From positions 111,626 to 175,625 of the forward strand of contig CAYPQZ010000008.1 of the NCBI GenBank assembly GCA_964413015.1: a stretch of DNA of 64,000 nucleotides, written 5' to 3'. Position 1 is the stretch's first letter. Each line of letters starts with the position of its first letter. Shown here one piece after another: positions 1,233 to 64,000 of the stretch. The stretch comes from an uncultured Candidatus Saccharibacteria bacterium. GTDB lineage: Bacteria; Patescibacteriota; Minisyncoccia; Portnoybacterales; UBA2143. The translations under genes were made by a program, and so were the position numbers. The notes beneath the pieces were generated by a model. It had not been told where the DNA came from. It did no database searches and saw nothing but the letters and a program-made list of their open reading frames with translations.

Positions 1233-1350
1233 AATAGTTTATACTTTATCATATTGTTTTCTATTTTTCAAGCAGTCTTAAGAGGACAGCCCTTGAAATT
1301 ATGCTCTTTGAGCATAAGGACGTCATTTCAAGGACTGTCCTTTGACGATT

Positions 1351-7991: not shown

Positions 7992-8078
7992 CGGAGAGGG
8001 TGGGATTCGAACCCACGGTCATCCAAAGACGACAACGGTTTTCGAGACCGTCCCTTTCGTCCGCTCAGGCACCTCTCC
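7992..8078 (-). tRNA. tRNA-Ser (CGA)
   Basis: Acceptor GGAGAGG/CCTCTCC, anticodon loop CU-CGA-AA, long variable arm, T-loop GGTTCGAATCC. Confidence 0.85.
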
Positions 8079-8080
8079 CT

Positions 8081-8323
8081 TTATAATTCTAACTTCTTTT
8101 TTAATTGTCTTCTACCTTGAGATTTTTTATAAAAATTTTCTGTTTTTTGAGCTAATGTTTTTGTCTGGTATGCTTCGTAATAAATTAAATCCCATGGCCT
8201 GAAATTTCTTGTAGATTTTACTTTTCCGAAATTGTGTTCTTTAAGTCTTTTTTCTAGATTACTGGTGCTTCCTCTATACAATTTATTATTTTTTTGGTTT
8301 TTTAGAAGATAAAAATAATACAT
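8081..8323 (-). CDS. GIY-YIG nuclease family protein (YhbQ-like, stand-alone)
   Basis: 80 aa; YYFYLLKNQKNNKLYRGSTSNLEKRLKEH matches the GIY-YIG core (Y..Y....YxG...L..R...H). Ends 2 bp before the tRNA-Ser 5' end. Confidence 0.7.
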   Translation of the reverse strand: MYYFYLLKNQKNNKLYRGSTSNLEKRLKEHNFGKVKSTRNFRPWDLIYYEAYQTKTLAQKTENFYKKSQGRRQLKKKLEL

Positions 8324-8399: not shown

Positions 8400-8435
8400 C
8401 GAGACCGTCCCTTTCGTCCGCTCAGGCACCTCTCC
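8400..8435 (-). pseudogene. duplicated 5' half (nt 1-35) of tRNA-Ser(CGA)
   Basis: 36/36 identity with 8043-8078 (CGAGACCGTCCCTTTCGTCCGCTCAGGCACCTCTCC). The copy stops inside the anticodon. Two hairpins (8324-8396) follow it. Confidence 0.8.
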
Positions 8436-8452
8436 ATATGTATTTTTTGTTT

Positions 8453-35125: not shown

Positions 35126-35208
35126 GCGGACGTGGCGGAACGGCAGACGCGTCAGGTTTAGGACCTGGTGGGGTAAAACCCGTGAGAGTTCAAATCTCTC
35201 CGTCCGCA
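35126..35208 (+). tRNA. tRNA-Leu (TAG)
   Basis: Acceptor GCGGACG/CGTCCGC, anticodon loop UU-TAG-GA, long variable arm. Confidence 0.85.
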
Positions 35209-35239
35209 CAGAATAAATAAAATTAAAAAAAGGCCGGTC

Positions 35240-35330
35240 AAAATTTAAGGAGTCGTCCTCTCCCTCCGGAGGCGGACAGGCGAGCGTGACCTTCCACCTT
35301 TGGCGTAAGATCACTATTCTCAATGACAAT
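35240..35330 (-). other. conserved ~90-nt non-coding element, copy A
   Basis: About 85% identical to 59521-59610 in the opposite orientation. Contains CTGTCCGCCTCCGGAGGGA and hairpins. Confidence 0.6.
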
Positions 35331-35401
35331 ATTTAAATTTTTAAAATTGTCTTCTTCGCAAACACAGCATCCAAAAGGACTGCCCTTTAAAGATTGAAAT
35401 C

Positions 35402-37105
35402 TTACTCGGGTTCCCCGTTGCCGGTTTGTGTTGGATACAAGTCGGGGGATTTGTAGTTGGAATAGAACTCCTGCTGGTCAATTAACTGGCCATCCTGATA
35501 AATTTCCTGATACAAGATGGTTTTCATAGAACCGTCTTTATTGCTTTCCAGAATGTAGGGTCCTTTAACTTTCGTCTCGCGGCCGTCATCAGTGCCGTAA
35601 AAGTTAAAAATCAGCTGATATCCCTGAAACTTGGTTTCAATCAATAAGTGGTTAGGAGTGTTGTTGATAAAACGGAGGTCGGGATGAGGTTCATAAATAG
35701 TTGCATCAAATCCTTGCGGATTGTAGTATTGGACAGGAAAAGCGTGAGGCGACCGTTCAGTAATCTTTAAGCCGCTCTTAACCGCGGCTCTGAAAAAAGT
35801 GGTTGAGACTTGACAAAGACCGCCTCCGTATTCAGGCAGGGTCTCGTTTTTTTTGATGACCAGTTCGGGCAAAAATCCCTGTTCGGCTCCACTGCCGCCT
35901 AAAAGATTATTAAAAGAAAATTCTTCTCCCGGATTAAGAATCAGGCCATTAAATTTAGCTGTTCCGATTTTAATATTGTGAATTCGGTTTTTAGGAGAAC
36001 CGTAAAAATTAGAAGCGCCCTGTCCAAGCAAAACATTAATTCCCAGACCGTTAGTTTGGTCAAGGGTAATCTTGGGCAAAAGCTTTTGAGCTGTAACGTA
36101 AGTTTTTTTAACTGGCGGTTTGGCTGTAATATTCTGAATTAACTGTTCCAGAGTTTTGTCTATGTCAATTCCGTAACCTTCTTGGTCCGGGACAAAAACA
36201 GTTGCCTGGTTGCCCTTAGTTTCTAATTGGGCGTCAATTGGGTAGCTGTTAATAGTTGAAGTTATTTCTACTAAATATTCTTTGATTCTTTTTTTGTCCA
36301 GGGAAACGCCTAGAATTTGATTATCGATTCCGTCTTTCGGAACCGGTTCAAATTTGAGCCAATCAACTAAAATTTTCTTGTCGATATTCCAAGCCCTTGT
36401 TTCTAGTATCAATTGATAGGGTCGTCCGGATAAAATCCTTTGAGCTTCTTCTTTAGCTGCGTCTACTTCGTCATTTTTAACGGTTGGTTCAATAAAAGAT
36501 ATCTCTAGATTAATCTGTTTATTGGATAGCGTATTGATTAATTCCGTTAAATCGGCTAAGAGCTTTTCCCGGTCAACCACTAGGCCGTTAGCTGAATCTT
36601 GGACTAAAAAATCATTGTTTGATTCATCAAAATATAAAGAGGCGTTTTTAACCGGTGTTTCAATATCTTTGAAAAGTTCTTGTGTTTGTTTTTGGAATTT
36701 CTCTTGGTTGACTGAGCAAATAGGCTTAAGGTCATAAAGACCGATCAATGCGGCCAATTGCTCTTTCGTATTAACGAAGAAATTATTCCCGCGACCAATT
36801 TGGTAAAGATTTTTAAGAGTAGTCGGTTCATCAGCTTGCAGCCCCAAATCATTTATTCTAGCTTTTAATTCATGGATTTCTGTTTGACTGGTAAAAACTA
36901 TTTCCTGCTGGTATAGGTTTTCCGTTTTATCTCTTAAAGCTTTTTGGGCAGCGAATATTTTCTGGCCGCCAAAATTAAAACCAGCCAATTTAACTCCCCA
37001 AGCAATTCTTTCTCCGTTGGCTATCTGTAGAGCTAGAATTAAGTATATCAGACAAATTAAAAAAATTAGGAGCGTTTTGGTTAATTGACTGGTGATTTTT
37101 ATCAT
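35402..37105 (-). CDS. VanW-family protein
   Basis: GGGLCQVSTTFFRAAVKSGLKITERSPHAFPVQYY...GFDATIY VanW core; N-terminal TM. Confidence 0.7.
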   Translation of the reverse strand: MIKITSQLTKTLLIFLICLIYLILALQIANGERIAWGVKLAGFNFGGQKIFAAQKALRDKTENLYQQEIVFTSQTEIHELKARINDLGLQADEPTTLKNLYQIGRGNNFFVNTKEQLAALIGLYDLKPICSVNQEKFQKQTQELFKDIETPVKNASLYFDESNNDFLVQDSANGLVVDREKLLADLTELINTLSNKQINLEISFIEPTVKNDEVDAAKEEAQRILSGRPYQLILETRAWNIDKKILVDWLKFEPVPKDGIDNQILGVSLDKKRIKEYLVEITSTINSYPIDAQLETKGNQATVFVPDQEGYGIDIDKTLEQLIQNITAKPPVKKTYVTAQKLLPKITLDQTNGLGINVLLGQGASNFYGSPKNRIHNIKIGTAKFNGLILNPGEEFSFNNLLGGSGAEQGFLPELVIKKNETLPEYGGGLCQVSTTFFRAAVKSGLKITERSPHAFPVQYYNPQGFDATIYEPHPDLRFINNTPNHLLIETKFQGYQLIFNFYGTDDGRETKVKGPYILESNKDGSMKTILYQEIYQDGQLIDQQEFYSNYKSPDLYPTQTGNGEPE

Positions 37106-38576: not shown

Positions 38577-38597
38577 GAAAAAGCTGCTTTTTAAGGG

Positions 38598-40706
38598 CTA
38601 TCCTTTAGGGACTTTAAGGACTGGCCAATCCTCAATCATTAAAAATTCTTTTTCTTTGAAGTTTAATTGTTGATAAATTGATTCAGTAACGAAAGGCATA
38701 AACGGATGGAGCAATTTCAGCGAATCCAGAAGAACTCGGGTCAGTATCCGTTGGGTCTGTTCGTTATTATGTTTTTTTGAGGCTTCTATGTATTTATCGC
38801 AGAAATCGTGCCAGAAAAAATCATAAAGGATGTGAGCCGCCTGTCCGAAACGGAAATTCTCCAAGTCAGCATTTATTTTTTTGGTGACTGTAGATAATTG
38901 CTTTAATATTAATTTATCCGCTGGCGTCAATTTGTTATAAAGTTTGACATTGAAAGTAGCGACATTGCCAGAGGCAAGGTCGCGCTCGAAAGGTCGAACC
39001 TTATGATCAACGGCGTTTAAAACAAATCGGCTAGCATTCCATATTTTATTAGCGAATTTTTTCCCCATCAGGATATTTTCTTCAGAAAAGTGGACATCCT
39101 GACTGCCTAATGATTGGTAGATAAGACCGAATCTGGTTGCATCGGCTCCGTATTGATCGACTAATTCTAAGGGGTCACGGCCCGTTCCTAGCGATTTACT
39201 CATCCGCTGGCCGCTTTTTGTCAGAATTGTCGCGTGGATAATTATGTCAGTAAAAGGTATTTTTTCAGTCAATTCCAGGCCGGAGAAAATCATTCGGGCA
39301 ACCCAGAGATTAATAATGTCCCGGGCGGTGCTTAGAATGTCGGTTGGATAAAATTCTCTCAAATCCCTGGTTTTTTCAGGCCAGCCCAGAGTGGCGAAAG
39401 GCCATAAGGCGGAAGAAAACCAAGTATCCAGCACATCAGTTTCTCCTTTGATAGGAATCTTATGTCCCCACCATATCTGGCGGGAAATACACCAGTCCTG
39501 GATATTCTTTAACCAATCGAAATATACTTTTTCCCATCGCTTGGGATGGAATTTAATTTTGCCGTCCTTAACCGCCTGGAGCGCTTTTTGGGCTAATTTG
39601 TCCATTTTCAAAAACCATTGTTTGCTGATTAACGGTTCAACGGCGTTATTGCAGCGATAACAACAGGGGATTTGATGAAAGTAGTCTTCTGTTTTTTTCA
39701 AAAGGCCTTGCTTTTCTAATTCCTGGACGACTTTTTCTCGCGCTTGCAAAATTGTTAAGTTTTCAAATTTTTTTCCGGACTGAGCAGTCATTTTCCCTTT
39801 TTCGCCGATTATCCGGATAAAGGGCAATTTGTGGCGTTGAGCCATTCCCGCATCAACTGGAGAATGTGCCGGAGTAACTTTAACTGCTCCGGTGCCAAAT
39901 TTCGGGTCAATCACTTTGTCGGCAATAATCGGGATTTCTCTATTAATCAGAGGTAAAATTACCTTTTGGCCGATTAGCTTTTTATATCTTTTGTCATTTG
40001 GGTGGACCGCTACGGCCGTGTCACCTAGCATTGTTTCCGGTCGGGTCGTCGCTACAGTTATATATCCCTTCCCTTTAAGCAAAGGATATTTCAGATACCA
40101 AAGATGGCTTTTTTCTTCTTTATATTCCAGCTCTAAATCAGACAAACTGGTCTGGCAGCGGGGACACCAATTAATCATTCTTTTTCCCTGATAAATCCAG
40201 CCTTTTTTATGGTAATGAAGAAAGGCCTGTTTGACCGCTTTTTGATAATTCGGACTCATGGTAAAAGCAGTTCGCGACCAGTCACAGGAACAGCCCAGTT
40301 TTTTTAATTGTAGCAGGATTAAATCGCCGTATTTTTTTCGCCATTTCCAGATTTTTCCCAGGAATTTTTCTCTTCCTAAGTCATAGCGGGTCAGCCCTTG
40401 TTTTTTTAAATCTTTTTCCACTACGTTTTGAGTGGCAATGCCGGCGTGGTCAGTCCCGGGCAGCCAAAGAGCCCTATATCCGGACATTCTTTTCCATCGA
40501 ATAAGGATGTCTTGAGTAAAGGCATTCAAGGCATGTCCCATATGCAGTTCGCCAGTAATATTAGGCGGGGGAATTACGATAGAATATTTCTTAGCTGTTT
40601 TTTTGACTGGCAGTTTATCGGGGTTAAAATAACCCGACTTTTCCCAAAGCCGGTAAATCTTTTTTTCGTTATCTTGAGGATTGTACGGTTTAGAAGATTG
40701 TTTCAT
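38598..40706 (-). CDS. valS: valyl-tRNA synthetase (short, no C-terminal coiled coil)
   Basis: PPPNITGELHMGHA (HIGH), KMSKSLGT (KMSKS), DTWFSSALWPFATLGWP. Confidence 0.8.
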   Translation of the reverse strand: MKQSSKPYNPQDNEKKIYRLWEKSGYFNPDKLPVKKTAKKYSIVIPPPNITGELHMGHALNAFTQDILIRWKRMSGYRALWLPGTDHAGIATQNVVEKDLKKQGLTRYDLGREKFLGKIWKWRKKYGDLILLQLKKLGCSCDWSRTAFTMSPNYQKAVKQAFLHYHKKGWIYQGKRMINWCPRCQTSLSDLELEYKEEKSHLWYLKYPLLKGKGYITVATTRPETMLGDTAVAVHPNDKRYKKLIGQKVILPLINREIPIIADKVIDPKFGTGAVKVTPAHSPVDAGMAQRHKLPFIRIIGEKGKMTAQSGKKFENLTILQAREKVVQELEKQGLLKKTEDYFHQIPCCYRCNNAVEPLISKQWFLKMDKLAQKALQAVKDGKIKFHPKRWEKVYFDWLKNIQDWCISRQIWWGHKIPIKGETDVLDTWFSSALWPFATLGWPEKTRDLREFYPTDILSTARDIINLWVARMIFSGLELTEKIPFTDIIIHATILTKSGQRMSKSLGTGRDPLELVDQYGADATRFGLIYQSLGSQDVHFSEENILMGKKFANKIWNASRFVLNAVDHKVRPFERDLASGNVATFNVKLYNKLTPADKLILKQLSTVTKKINADLENFRFGQAAHILYDFFWHDFCDKYIEASKKHNNEQTQRILTRVLLDSLKLLHPFMPFVTESIYQQLNFKEKEFLMIEDWPVLKVPKG

Positions 40707-41915: not shown

Positions 41916-42008
41916 GGTTATAAAGGACGGTCCTTTAATTGCTGTCCTTTAATTATCTTACAAGAAACATTGTTTTTTTTCAATTTTCCTGTTAAGATTC
42001 ATACGAAT

Positions 42009-46833: not shown

Positions 46834-46942
46834 TTGTCCCCCCTATTTAAATGTTAAATACCTGCCTTTTGTTGTTATTTTAATTAGAGGATTGTATTTT
46901 GTCAAGTAAACTTGCTCCAATGCATAAAGGACTGTCCTTTAA

Positions 46943-50456: not shown

Positions 50457-51119
50457 TTATCTCCTGGCAATGACTAATCCCCAGATTTCTTTGGGCTTGA
50501 GGGGTTTTAGGACTCGAGCGCATTCTCCCAAGGTGGCTCCGGTGGTGGCAATGTCGTCAATAAGAATAGCCGTAAAAGGACGTAATTTTAAGGACTGTCC
50601 TTTATTTAACATAAAGGCGTTTTTGATATTCTGCTTTCTTTGCCGAGCATTTTGGATTTGAGCCTGCGGCAAATTATATTTTTTCCGGACAATCAAGTTA
50701 TTAACAATTGGAATATTTAATTGCCGGCTAATTTCAAGAGCCAACAATTCTGATTGATTAAAGCCCCGCCAACGCAATCGTTTTTTGTGCAAGGGAACCG
50801 GAATTAGAATAGAATTCCTTTGAATAATGAAATCAGAAAGGACATTTATCCTTTGGACTAGGAGACATCCTAGCGGTTCAGCTAAATCTTTAATAAAGTC
50901 ATACTTGTAATTATGAATAGCTTTTTTAATCAGCGGATGAGCGTAATAGCTGGCCGCAACTAGACCGGTTAAGCCGCTTCCGGAGTTTAATTTTAAAGGC
51001 GGTTTTTTACTTAACGGGATTTGGCTAAAGCAAGTCGGGCAAATAAACTCTCGGTGAGTTTCTTTGCCGCAGCCAAGGCAGTAGACAGGGAAAAGTAAAT
51101 TGATTAAGAGATTTATCAT
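50457..51119 (-). CDS. comF: ComF-family protein (zinc finger + phosphoribosyltransferase domain)
   Basis: N-terminal CLGCG...CPTC, C-terminal ILIDDIATTGATL PRTase motif. Confidence 0.75.
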   Translation of the reverse strand: MINLLINLLFPVYCLGCGKETHREFICPTCFSQIPLSKKPPLKLNSGSGLTGLVAASYYAHPLIKKAIHNYKYDFIKDLAEPLGCLLVQRINVLSDFIIQRNSILIPVPLHKKRLRWRGFNQSELLALEISRQLNIPIVNNLIVRKKYNLPQAQIQNARQRKQNIKNAFMLNKGQSLKLRPFTAILIDDIATTGATLGECARVLKPLKPKEIWGLVIARR

Positions 51120-58911: not shown

Positions 58912-59400
58912 GTGAAAAAAATGTTAAAGATTTTTAGCGCCAGAAAAGGTGAAAAAGGTTTTACCTTAATTGAGCTTTTAGTGGTTATGGCCATTATTGG
59001 AATTTTGGCAACCATTGTTTTAGTTTCCTTAAACACGGCCAGGCAAAAAGCCCGTGATACTCGTCGCATCAGCGATTTAAGGCAGGTCGCTTTAGCTTTG
59101 GAAATGTATTATGATGATAATGGCGGTTATCCGTCTGATACTACTGCCAGCGATGATGACTGGGCGGTTTTAGAAACAGAGCTGGAAGCGTCTCCTGTTT
59201 ACATGACTTCAGTTCCGTCTGACCCGGGCAGTAATACTTATGTTTATCATCCGAGTGGGACAACGGACAATGGTGCAACTGATTATGTCTTAGGAGCAAC
59301 TTTAGAGAATACAGATAATAAAGCTCTTGATGATGCTTATGACGGTACCGCTAATGGATTAGATTGTTCCGATTCAGGGCTTTACTGTATAATGCCTTAA
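58912..59400 (+). CDS. pilA: type IV major pilin
   Basis: KG|FTLIELLVVMAIIGIL prepilin signal, Ser/Thr/Asp-rich C-terminus. SD GGGGGTGA. Confidence 0.8.
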   Translation: MKKMLKIFSARKGEKGFTLIELLVVMAIIGILATIVLVSLNTARQKARDTRRISDLRQVALALEMYYDDNGGYPSDTTASDDDWAVLETELEASPVYMTSVPSDPGSNTYVYHPSGTTDNGATDYVLGATLENTDNKALDDAYDGTANGLDCSDSGLYCIMP

Positions 59401-59404
59401 TTTT

Positions 59405-59485
59405 TAGTTAAATAACCTGGTAATCGGGAAGCTTAGCAGGACCGGATGTTTTCTGCTAAGCTTGAGATTATCAGGTTATTTGTGT
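59405..59485 (+). terminator. long imperfect hairpin after pilA
   Basis: About 30-bp stem AAATAACCTGGTAATCGGGAAGCTTAGCAGG / CTGCTAAGCTTGAGATTATCAGGTTATTT. Confidence 0.5.
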
Positions 59486-59520
59486 AAAAGAGCCAAAAGG
59501 CGATTTTTAAAAATTTAAGG

Positions 59521-59610
59521 ATTGTCATTGAGAGTAGTGACCTTCCGCCGAAGGCGGAAAGTTACGCTCACCTGTCCGCCTCCGGAGGGAAAAGACGATT
59601 CTTAAATTTT
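59521..59610 (+). other. conserved ~90-nt non-coding element, copy B
   Basis: See copy A (35240-35330). Confidence 0.6.
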
Positions 59611-59694
59611 GACAAGCTTCCATGATAAGAACAGTCTTTAAAATGACGCCCTTGTGCTCAAGGGACATCATTTTAAGGACTGTCCTTTAATGAC

Positions 59695-60486
59695 ATGTTT
59701 ATTTATCTTTTCATCTTTTTATTTGGCCTGATGATCGGCAGTTTCCTGAATGTAGTTATTTACCGTTTAGAAACCAAAGAGTCAATCATTAAAGGCCGCT
59801 CTCATTGTTTAGAATGTGGCGTTGTTTTGAAGTGGTATGATAATATTCCGTTATTAAGTTTTATTTTTCTGCGCGGCCGCTGTCGTTTCTGCGGGCAGAA
59901 AATAAGCTGGCAGTACCCTATAGTCGAAATAGCGACTGCTTCGTTATTTCTTCTAATTTTTAATTTTAAATTTTTAATTTTTAAACAGTTTTTAATTTTT
60001 AATTTTATAGACTTAATTTATCTCTGGTTTATTGCATCGGTTTTGATAATTATTTTTGCTTATGACTTAAAGCATTATATTATTCCTGACAAGATTGTTT
60101 ACCCAGCCATTGTCGTATCTGGTATTTGGTATTTAGTATCTGGCATTCTTATACGAAATACGAAATACGAGTTACGAGATACTATTCTGGGTGCCGTTTT
60201 GACTGCTCTGTTTTTTTTCCTGATAGTCCTTATTACTAAAGGCAAAGGTATGGGCTTGGGTGATGTTAAGCTGGCTTTCTTAATGGGTTTAGCGCTGGGC
60301 TGGCCCAGTATTTTAATCGCCCTGTTTTTATCTTTTATGAGCGGAGCGATTGTTGGCATAGGATTGATAGCGGTTGGCAAAAAAGGCCTGAAATCGCAAA
60401 TTCCCTTTGGTCCGTTTCTATCAGCTAGCGCAATCTTTGTTCTGGTTTTTAAAGACTATTTGACAATGTTTTTAGATAAAATATAA
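59695..60486 (+). CDS. pilD: prepilin peptidase (A24 family) PilD
   Basis: N-terminal CLEC...C..C zinc finger, DLKHYIIPD and GLGDVK catalytic Asp motifs. Confidence 0.8.
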   Translation: MFIYLFIFLFGLMIGSFLNVVIYRLETKESIIKGRSHCLECGVVLKWYDNIPLLSFIFLRGRCRFCGQKISWQYPIVEIATASLFLLIFNFKFLIFKQFLIFNFIDLIYLWFIASVLIIIFAYDLKHYIIPDKIVYPAIVVSGIWYLVSGILIRNTKYELRDTILGAVLTALFFFLIVLITKGKGMGLGDVKLAFLMGLALGWPSILIALFLSFMSGAIVGIGLIAVGKKGLKSQIPFGPFLSASAIFVLVFKDYLTMFLDKI

Positions 60487-63040: not shown

Positions 63041-63496
63041 ATGATTAAGAATAAGTTGCCTCAGGTCAAAAAAGACATTAAGGCCTTTTTAACTAGCGAA
63101 GAAGGCAGGATTAATAAAAAGAAAGTGGCTAAAATCGCTATGACTGTTTTAGCTTTGGGGATTGGTTTGGCCGGAGCAATGAAGCCGGATCCAAGTTCAG
63201 CTGCTTGTTCTCACGCTTCTCATGGCTCTCACAGCTCCCATAGTTCCCATGGCTCCCATGGCTCTCATGGTTCCCATGGTTCCCATGGCTCCCATGGCTC
63301 TCATAGTTCTCATAGCTCTCATAGTTCCCATGGCTCTCATGGCTCCCATGGTTCCCATGGTTCCCATGGTTCCCATGGCTCCCATGGCTCCCATGGTTCC
63401 CATGGTTCCCATGGTTCCCATAGTTCCCATGGCTCCCATGGTTCCCATGGCTCCCATGGTTCCCATAGCTCCCATAGCTCCCATAGCTCTTATTAA
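63041..63496 (+). CDS. His-Xaa-Ser repeat precursor peptide (leader + ~30x S-H-G/S)
   Basis: N-terminal leader with one hydrophobic stretch, then SHGSHGSHSSH... to the stop. Confidence 0.7.
   Translation: MIKNKLPQVKKDIKAFLTSEEGRINKKKVAKIAMTVLALGIGLAGAMKPDPSSAACSHASHGSHSSHSSHGSHGSHGSHGSHGSHGSHSSHSSHSSHGSHGSHGSHGSHGSHGSHGSHGSHGSHGSHSSHGSHGSHGSHGSHSSHSSHSSY
63214..63493 (+). repeat. tandem 9-bp repeat (TCCCATGGY/TCYCATAGY) x ~31
   Basis: Direct nonamer array encoding the SHG/SHS repeats. Confidence 0.9.
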
Positions 63497-63508
63497 ATTT
63501 GTAATATG

Positions 63509-64000
63509 AGTTTGAATAAAAAAATACTATTTTCAACAATTATTATAATTATTTTTATAGTTGCCATATTTGTGGGAGCATTTTTTTATCTGCCTGAAGA
63601 GCAAATTCCATCAGATATTTCTCAGAAAACAGATAAGGAAAAATGCTTAGAAGATGTGGCTCAAATGACCGACCAAGAATTAATTAACGAAGTCAAGAAT
63701 TTAAAAGATCCATATGGAGAAACGGGTATTGTTGGCAGCGATGGCATTCCCAAAGATAGAATGTCCTGGGCCCAAAATCAAATGTCTCGATATCTAATTT
63801 GCAAATTGAGGATTAATTCTAATAATGAAGATGTTTATAATAGAGCAAAAAAGTTTATCGATGAATCAGGCTTTGAAGAAGAATACGAAGACAATAAACA
63901 GATTTATTTGTCCAAACTGGAAAGAGCGCGTTCTGTTCCTGTAGAAAACTCTTTTAATATACAGCTGGCCCTAGGCGATTTAGATGAAATCTGTCCCAAT
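63509..64000 (+). CDS. hypothetical membrane-anchored protein (5' part, runs off the window)
   Basis: ATG at 63509, N-terminal TM, open frame to the window end. It is absent from the ORF track only because no stop is seen. Confidence 0.45.

Follow-up and report, generated by a model that had tools for sequence, protein, structure and literature searches.

Short palindromic repeats that lie between genes are known from several groups of bacteria. The repetitive extragenic palindromic (REP) sequences of Proteobacteria, together with the bacterial interspersed mosaic elements (BIMEs) and REPINs, are imperfect palindromes of small size found where genes meet and downstream of stop codons, with a GTAG directly 5′ of the hairpin; their palindromic units combine with specific linkers into mosaics, and they are co-transcribed with the flanking genes. 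Miniature inverted-repeat transposable elements (MITEs; for example, the ~100-155-bp Correia elements of Neisseria, enterobacterial ERIC, and pneumococcal RUP and BOX) are non-coding, shorter than ~600 bp and situated between genes, with presence and absence differing among related lineages, and their terminal inverted repeats fold the transcript into a long hairpin that is expected to affect mRNA stability and processing. Rickettsia palindromic elements (RPEs) are palindromic repeats of a reduced genome that can stand in frame within genes, and riboswitch or attenuator leaders have stem-closed junctions with alternative pairings in 5′ leaders. Patescibacteria (the candidate phyla radiation, CPR) have small, streamlined genomes, and full-text literature searches turned up no account of repeat families of the REP or MITE type in them. 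Here, we describe an element of ~112 nt in a 64,000-nt stretch (hereafter, the window) of contig CAYPQZ010000008.1 from an uncultured member of the Patescibacteriota (lineage UBA2143), whose protein relatives place it with the Parcubacteria-type members of the CPR. The element is multi-copy and non-coding, has inverted-repeat ends, is lineage-specific at three loci, is built on a dispersed palindrome and is combined with another palindromic module in a mosaic. With slightly better than even confidence, we read it as a lineage-specific, non-coding, hairpin-forming repeat in a palindromic mosaic, passively transcribed with its flanking genes. Families of small palindromic intergenic repeats are of a known kind, and nothing seen here establishes this one as a new regulatory RNA.

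A preliminary description, made from the letters of the window, had reported two copies of ~90 nt. Both are real: the 20-mers CCTGTCCGCCTCCGGAGGGA (35261-35280, minus strand, and 59571-59590, plus strand) and ATTGTCATTGAGARTAGTGA (35311-35330, minus strand, and 59521-59540, plus strand) are each present at just two places in the window and had zero matches in 100 dinucleotide-preserving shuffles of it. The repeat is longer than first thought, with alignment giving ~112 nt for copies A and B (Table 1) at 87% identity and with one indel, of 1 nt. Reading ~10 kb and 15 kb of flanking sequence from conspecific metagenome contigs brought the coverage of this genome to ~89 kb in total and added one further copy, copy C, the only one in the flanks. 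The three full copies are mutually 85-89% identical, and copy B is identical in the conspecific contigs L001-L004 and L041. Copy A lies in the spacer between the stop codon of a VanW-like gene (Pfam VanW and PG_binding_4) and a convergent tRNA-Leu(tag) gene, and is followed by a run of seven U residues; it had correctly been placed beside the tRNA gene, but not within the 3′ region of the VanW-like gene, the open reading frame (ORF) of which stops 54 nt upstream of the copy. Copy B lies, as described, between the hairpin that follows pilA and pilD. Copy C lies between comEC-N (DUF4131 and Competence domains) and a separate comEC-C (Lactamase_B), in the same orientation as both, and begins within the last codons of comEC-N, the stop codon of which falls in the first bases of the copy.

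No reading frame is conserved among the copies. One sense frame does run without a stop through copies A, B and C (...FKNLRIVIESSDLPPKAESYAHLSASGGKRRFLNF...), but a small protein-coding gene across the element is extremely improbable: the frame lacks a ribosome-binding site and, in copies B and C, any ATG, GTG or TTG start (copy A offers an internal GTG only, for ~18 aa, near the end of the frame), ~9-10 of the 12 substitutions between copies A and B are non-synonymous, and the 1-nt indel alters the C terminus, with the frame shifted at the 3′ end on either strand. On the strand opposite copy B, JGI annotates a 48-aa gene (in L001), which is not conserved in copy A or C. The small-protein hypothesis was rejected on the missing starts, the non-synonymous changes and the indel.

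All three orthologous sites are without the element in relatives of 70-81% protein identity. The pilA-pilD spacer measures ~88 nt in three relatives (L007, L008 and L011; 66-70% PilD identity) versus 295 nt here; the relatives keep the pilA hairpin, start pilD ~15 nt after it and lack both copy B and the hairpin module that follows it (module 2), and these two together account exactly for the extra ~205 nt. Similarly, ~210 nt holding copy C and module 2 separate comEC-N from comEC-C here, whereas the two genes of a relative (L047/L048) share an 11-nt overlap. Within the VanW-tRNA-Leu interval, another relative (L050) has a PAP2 gene and no element. No A/B/C-type copy was present in ~150 kb of relatives' DNA. 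The full copies sit at junctions (pilA/pilD, comEC-N/comEC-C and VanW/tRNA-Leu) that are short or overlapping in relatives. Copy C was rejected as the cause of the split of comEC, which is ancestral in the clade. The long hairpin after pilA is itself conserved in L007, L008 and L011, with several positions differing on both arms, and probably sets the pilA:pilD ratio as an attenuator or stabiliser.

The fold is described here on the strands named in the preliminary description (minus for copy A, plus for copy B). An imperfect inverted repeat at the element's ends forms P1, a 17-bp AT-rich closing stem (94% of cells paired). Inside it stand P2, a 17-bp interrupted hairpin with AUUGA before it and GUAG at its base (GTAG is found directly 5′ of P2 in copies A, B and C, and in the degenerate copy D introduced below), and a conserved 24-nt 3′ block (CCUGUCCGCCUCCGGAGGGA; as RNA, ACCUGUCCGCCUCCGGAGGGARAA) with a 10-nt palindrome, CCUCCGGAGG. 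Predicted free energies were -46.0 kcal/mol for the sense strand (z -6.6) and -35.8 for the antisense strand of copy B, and -33.9 kcal/mol (z -2.4) and -26.0, respectively, for copy A. Differences between the two copies that preserve pairing had been taken as a sign of selection on RNA structure. In copies A, B and C, 0 of the 34 pairs are changed on both sides, 4 have a one-sided change (G-C to G-U type) and 6 lose pairing in some copy, so this argument is unsupported by the full copies, in which the changes are one-sided (G-C to G-U, or A.G to C-G). When two D copies (that of the window and that of a relative, below) were added, 6 pairs were changed on both sides versus 2.7 in shuffles (11/500) and 0-1 in slid controls, a signal that is only suggestive because the alignment was fitted to the model and copy D is coding sequence. 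Searches of the whole window with Rfam 15 at the gathering threshold, a check that had been proposed, returned only tRNAs, and relaxing the E value up to 10 over both copies gave nothing credible, so that the element has no Rfam family. Hammerhead, twister, TPP, yybP-ykoY, glycine, ZTP, c-di-GMP and SRP RNAs were likewise rejected, as motif order or topology did not fit by eye and their models gave no matches.

Strong structure on one strand, recurrence in several copies and an intergenic position would also suit a family of trans-acting small RNAs (sRNAs), that is, paralogues of ~110 nt with their own promoters, whose conserved single-stranded CCUCC/GGAGG block could pair with ribosome-binding sites; in copy A, the U7 run could be added to these points. 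We regard this as improbable: no sigma-70-like promoter was seen next to copy A or B (although promoter rules for Patescibacteria are poorly known), no canonical terminator abuts either of them, copy C begins inside the last comEC-N codons, and the element is absent from relatives.

The ends of the element lead to a second palindrome. PAL, a near-perfect 19-bp palindrome (TTTAAGGACTGTCCTTTAA, also written TTTAAGGACNGTCCTTTAA), recurs at gene junctions of this genome, with 11 matches in the window at ≤2 mismatches (6 sites, most of them on both strands) versus 0.09 expected, and further sites at 3 mismatches. PAL sites follow the stop codons of the VanW-like gene, valS and recG, and one stands inside comFC; at four genes (M50 peptidase, prsW, tsaD and pilD), a start codon comes ~5-16 nt after PAL, with the AAGGA half ~15 nt before that start. 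The P1 arms differ from the PAL 13-mers by 1-3 mismatches in copies B and C and by 3 and 4 in copy A. The element can therefore be described as a PAL split at its dyad by a cargo of ~68 nt, consisting of the P2 hairpin and the conserved 3′ block, such that the two PAL halves form the closing stem P1. A degenerate PAL abuts the 5′ side of copy C. After copies B and C comes module 2, a long hairpin with PAL at its end, and the two module 2 copies are 100% identical, whereas the element parts of B and C differ at 12 of 107 positions (11%) and the 7-10-nt linkers between element and module are unrelated. Identical modules next to diverged elements imply separate histories for element and module and, with the unrelated linkers, a mosaic, modular arrangement, ordered at both copies as degenerate PAL, PAL-framed element and module 2 (half-PAL, hairpin, PAL). 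The identity of module 2 at the two sites suggests recent independent insertion or gene conversion beside the element. A related module 2 copy is also found near the left end of the window (Table 1).

PAL has features of its own. As RNA it would pair a Shine-Dalgarno-like AAGGA with UCCUU; possible roles are those of a signal for translation or structure, of an operator bound by a protein or of a REP-like unit. One relative (L007) carries a PAL-hairpin-PAL arrangement (1232-1291) at the syntenic comFC position, apparently in frame, and PAL was not found in the loci of other relatives. That PAL marks a competence regulon was rejected, its neighbours including the tsaD, recG, dksA-like, M50 and prsW genes.

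Given these dyads, we also considered a DNA-level site for a dimeric protein (a transcription factor, a Xer-like or other recombinase, or a restriction-modification enzyme) recognising CCTCCGGAGG and/or PAL. In copy C, the 10-bp palindrome reads CCUCUAGAGG in place of CCUCCGGAGG, remaining palindromic through a double change from CCGG to CTAG. Selection might underlie that change, acting on a dyad in DNA or on a duplex in RNA, but a CG-to-TA double change is also expected from deamination of methylated CCGG on both strands. Moreover, although PAL is a near-perfect 19-bp dyad 5-16 nt from several start codons, the ~110-nt element far exceeds a binding site, and its G.U pairs make the structure strand-specific, which a site in duplex DNA would not need. 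The tRNA gene beside copy A would suit such a site but adjoins just one of the three full copies, and the att-like proposal is unsupported on that count. Overall, we judge a DNA-level site quite improbable.

The main rival reading is a cis-regulatory role. Copies B and C stand directly upstream of pilD and comEC-C, respectively, each followed by the identical module 2 with its terminator-like stem, as might be expected if the three-way junction were a riboswitch- or attenuator-like sensor for these two genes and module 2 its expression platform, a long hairpin whose 3′ arm carries an AAGGA/UCCUU hairpin just before the start codon. The favoured fold of the sense strand agrees with such a role. 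In addition, UCCGCC of the 3′ block repeats the P2 5′ strand, which leaves the P2 3′ strand (GGCGGA) a second possible partner in that block. The alternative pairing is available in all copies and is the minimum-energy fold of copy C. However, with P1 kept, the alternative fold is 5-11 kcal/mol weaker than P1 plus P2 in all copies (the enforced-pair energies being approximate), and a balanced two-state RNA switch is not supported. Further, no relative examined has the element upstream of pilD or comEC-C, compensatory changes are lacking among copies A, B and C, junctions and loops are no more conserved than stems (~18% versus 20% variable columns), and there is no Rfam match. Copy A has neither a downstream gene nor module 2; what follows it is an antisense tRNA and no terminator, which also speaks against the attenuator that had been proposed. 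We therefore consider such a cis-regulatory cassette unlikely. It is improbable, too, that element and module 2 together constitute a mobile regulatory RNA cassette, in which a palindrome-framed sensor or processing domain is joined to a hairpin masking the ribosome-binding region, recruited twice independently before pilD and comEC-C of an episymbiotic patescibacterium.

Table 1. Coordinates of the element copies, their parts and associated features. Positions are those of the window unless a contig is named.
Feature	Position	Strand	Remarks
Copy A	35235-35346	-	119.3 bits with covariance model R1
Copy A, P1	35325-35341 with 35240-35257	-	From fold
Copy A, P2	35282-35319	-	From fold
Copy A, 3′ block	35258-35281	-	From alignment and fold
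Copy B	59505-59615	+	135.1 bits with covariance model R1
Copy B, P1 5′ strand	59510-59526	+	AAAAUUUAAGGAUUGUC; holds TTTAAGGATTGTC, left PAL 13-mer with 1 mismatch
Copy B, P1 3′ strand	59594-59610	+	GACGAUUCUUAAAUUUU; holds GACGATTCTTAAA, right PAL 13-mer with 3 mismatches
Copy B, P2 hairpin	59532-59569	+	GAGU.GUGAC.UUCCGCC-GAA-GGCGGAA.GUUAC-GCUC
Copy B, 3′ block	59570-59593	+	ACCUGUCCGCCUCCGGAGGGAAAA; contains palindrome CCUCCGGAGG
Copy C	L043 14530-14640; also L054 11336-11446	- (L043)	~1.4 kb past left edge of window
Copy D, degenerate	38930-39010	+	R1 30.9 bits, rough E ~6e-5; nhmmer E = 1e-3
Copy D in closest relative	L050 2920-3009		25.7 bits
Module 2 after copy B	59623-59692	+	70-nt hairpin (~22 bp), 3′ arm ends in PAL; ends 3 nt before pilD start
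Module 2 after copy C	L043 14452-14521	-	Ends ~37 nt before comEC-C
Related module 2 copy	1275-1345		
PAL unit	1327-1345		TTCAAGGACTGTCCTTTGA; just upstream of M50 peptidase gene, module-2-like hairpin before it
PAL-like unit	35375-35390	-	TTAAAGGGCAGTCCTT; 12 nt past VanW stop, 28 nt upstream of copy A
PAL-like unit	38590-38608		Overlaps valS stop codon; ~14 nt upstream of PrsW start (38576, -)
PAL unit	41920-41938		5 nt upstream of tsaD start (41915, -); second degenerate unit at 41934-41952
PAL unit	46924-46942		Directly after recG stop (46943), upstream of dksA-like gene
PAL unit	50587-50605		Inside comFC ORF (50457-51119, -), just upstream of PRTase ILIDD motif
PAL unit of module 2	59672-59690		Before pilD
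tRNA-Leu(tag)	35126-35209		Convergent with VanW-like gene
VanW-like ORF	35402-37105	-	Stop at 35402
valS	38598-40706	-	
pilA	58912-59400		
Hairpin after pilA	59413-59484		
pilD	59695-60486		

A covariance model (R1) built from copies A, B and C was run on the window and on the relatives' loci, as had been suggested, and matched one degenerate copy, copy D, antisense within valS. Copy D keeps P1, the AUUGARAGUAG junction (J1/2) and P2, has lost the 3′ block and folds well (z = -5.0). Its 81-nt match equals 27 codons and encodes part of a 27-aa linker of valyl-tRNA synthetase (ValRS) after NASRFVL. In the closest relative (L050-L052; ValRS 81% identical), the orthologous valS site shows this feature too and the linker is equally long, whereas in most relatives (72-77% identity) the linker has 13-17 aa of unrelated sequence, and in a few of them it is longer with other sequence (for example, ...IASDPPAGGERGNPERIPRDCFGLRPRND...). 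These observations fit, as indirect evidence, copy D being an old in-frame insertion into valS. The linker after NASRFVL may be a hotspot for in-frame repeat insertions. The ValRS of this clade, at ~700 aa, is also without the C-terminal coiled-coil and the zinc-finger or insertion segment that follows residue ~419 in many homologues of 870-900 aa.

Beyond this lineage, pattern scans of metagenome, species-representative genome and viral collections yielded no full-length homologue, and blastn against phage and plasmid collections gave no match. The pattern TTGAGARTAGN{30,60}CCGCCTCCGGAGG had one metagenome and one viral match, both in the same unrelated phage coding sequence, and viral scans with the 18-mer CTGTCCGCCTCCGGAGGG and the 5′ block returned chance coding matches; all of these were set aside. 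Scanning genomes with the 18-mer gave 26 matches, mostly by chance in GC-rich coding DNA, and only the match in a Candidatus Ryanbacteria contig (L018; MHNR01000027.1, 2700-2760), and perhaps those in L023 and L024, extend beyond it. In the Ryanbacteria contig, 25 intergenic nucleotides (GCTCGCCTGTCCGCCTCCGGAGGGA) are identical to the 3′ block, with TTGAGCGAAGTG upstream; the locus scores 14.8 bits with R1 and folds no better than shuffles. On six loci with the 18-mer, Rfam matched nothing beyond a tRNA and an L10 leader situated at other places in L018. The Ryanbacteria stretch lies between a tRNA and an ORF for a 93-aa membrane protein, with a TATAAT-like box before it and a terminator-like hairpin after it, and the Zixibacteria (L024) and WOR-3 (L023) loci have shorter shared extensions (CGCC...GGGAACC).

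Set against the described systems, the element behaves like REPs and BIMEs, like MITEs of the Correia or ERIC type and, as regards copy D, like RPEs; it has no sequence similarity to any of them, and we do not assign it to one of these families. It shares with REPs and BIMEs the position at gene junctions and after stops, the mosaic build (here PAL′-element-module 2), the GTAG directly 5′ of the P2 hairpin (AGUAG|UGAC) and probable co-transcription with flanking genes. It differs in carrying a 68-nt structured cargo inside a split palindrome rather than two inverted REPs, in the low copy number seen, in its reduced-genome patescibacterial host and in that no REP-associated tyrosine transposase (RAYT) was seen in the ~89 kb. 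With MITEs it has in common its ~110-nt non-coding make-up, terminal inverted repeats that would fold the transcript into a long hairpin, with the same expected effect on mRNA stability or processing, and intergenic positions filled in one lineage and empty in related ones; unlike them, it has no target-site duplication that could be defined (that of Correia elements is TA), no cognate insertion sequence in the ~89 kb, no detected outward promoter and no sequence similarity. RPEs offer a parallel in being palindromic repeats of a reduced genome and in that degenerate copy D stands apparently in frame in a variable linker of the essential valS and is kept in the closest relative, although the evidence for copy D is indirect, consisting of covariance-model scores in the range 26-31 bits and a linker that exceeds those of other relatives by 10-14 aa, and most copies here are intergenic. 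As in riboswitch and attenuator leaders, there is a three-way junction closed by P1, with possible 1:2 / 2:3 alternative pairing and two copies in 5′ leaders; in contrast to such leaders, the element is not conserved across relatives, shows no covariation among full copies, belongs to no Rfam family and has one copy upstream of no gene.

Taken together, the extra copies, the empty orthologous sites, the recurrent palindrome and the coupling with module 2 fit a family of palindromic repeats better than a dedicated sRNA or riboswitch. Each full copy has the orientation of its upstream gene and would thus be passively transcribed as 3′-untranslated or intercistronic RNA, which would fold into a stable Y-shaped structure; it would probably affect how stable mRNA 3′ ends are and uncouple the two flanking cistrons in their expression, with a dedicated signalling function less likely. 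Spread might depend on recognition of the hairpin or PAL ends by a transposase or recombinase acting in trans, or on recombination between PAL units. What survives of the preliminary description is a repeated non-coding element with strand-specific structure and no Rfam family; selection on structure, the attenuator and the att-like site do not.

Several observations weigh against a passively transcribed palindromic repeat. The ~89 kb held only three full copies and neither a transposase nor a RAYT gene with matching ends; the sole recombinase there is a Xer-like integrase, accompanied by small GIY-YIG ORFs. Copies A, B and C share no flanking direct repeat that would represent a target-site duplication, their edges being blurred by AT-rich, PAL-like flanks, and no presence/absence polymorphism was detected among conspecific contigs from several samples (4-9 per site), all of which carry the copies. 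All three copies are co-oriented with their flanking genes and the sense fold is 8-10 kcal/mol more stable than the antisense fold (7 G.U versus 4 A.C positions), both of which hint at an RNA-level role. Two of the three full copies precede DNA-uptake genes. Finally, a young selfish repeat does not explain the 25-nt identity in Ryanbacteria.

Other repeats occur in the window. A tandem repeat with a 9-nt period and ~40 units (63171-63534) falls in ORFs that overlap one another (63041-63496 and others); its product is probably a repeat protein of low complexity. Repeated segments of 46 nt flank tRNA genes (8043-8088 and 8400-8445, also ~49941 and 50383), and two tandem 80-aa GIY-YIG ORFs lie nearby (L043 4423-5022), with a GIY-YIG ORF also present in relative L011; the 46-nt repeats and these ORFs may be homing-endonuclease-like mobile units near tRNAs.

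If the palindromic-repeat reading is true and the repeat has spread over gene junctions in recent times, selfish or semi-selfish hairpin repeats persist even in streamlined Patescibacteria genomes, with insertions between once-overlapping DNA-uptake cistrons and perhaps in frame into valS. Such elements can mislead annotation, as with the JGI ORF across copy B, and alter the spacing of the pilA-pilD and comEC operons. Were the cassette regulatory instead, a mobile unit would couple competence-gene expression to some signal, and would offer a lead on competence control in organisms not yet genetically manipulable.

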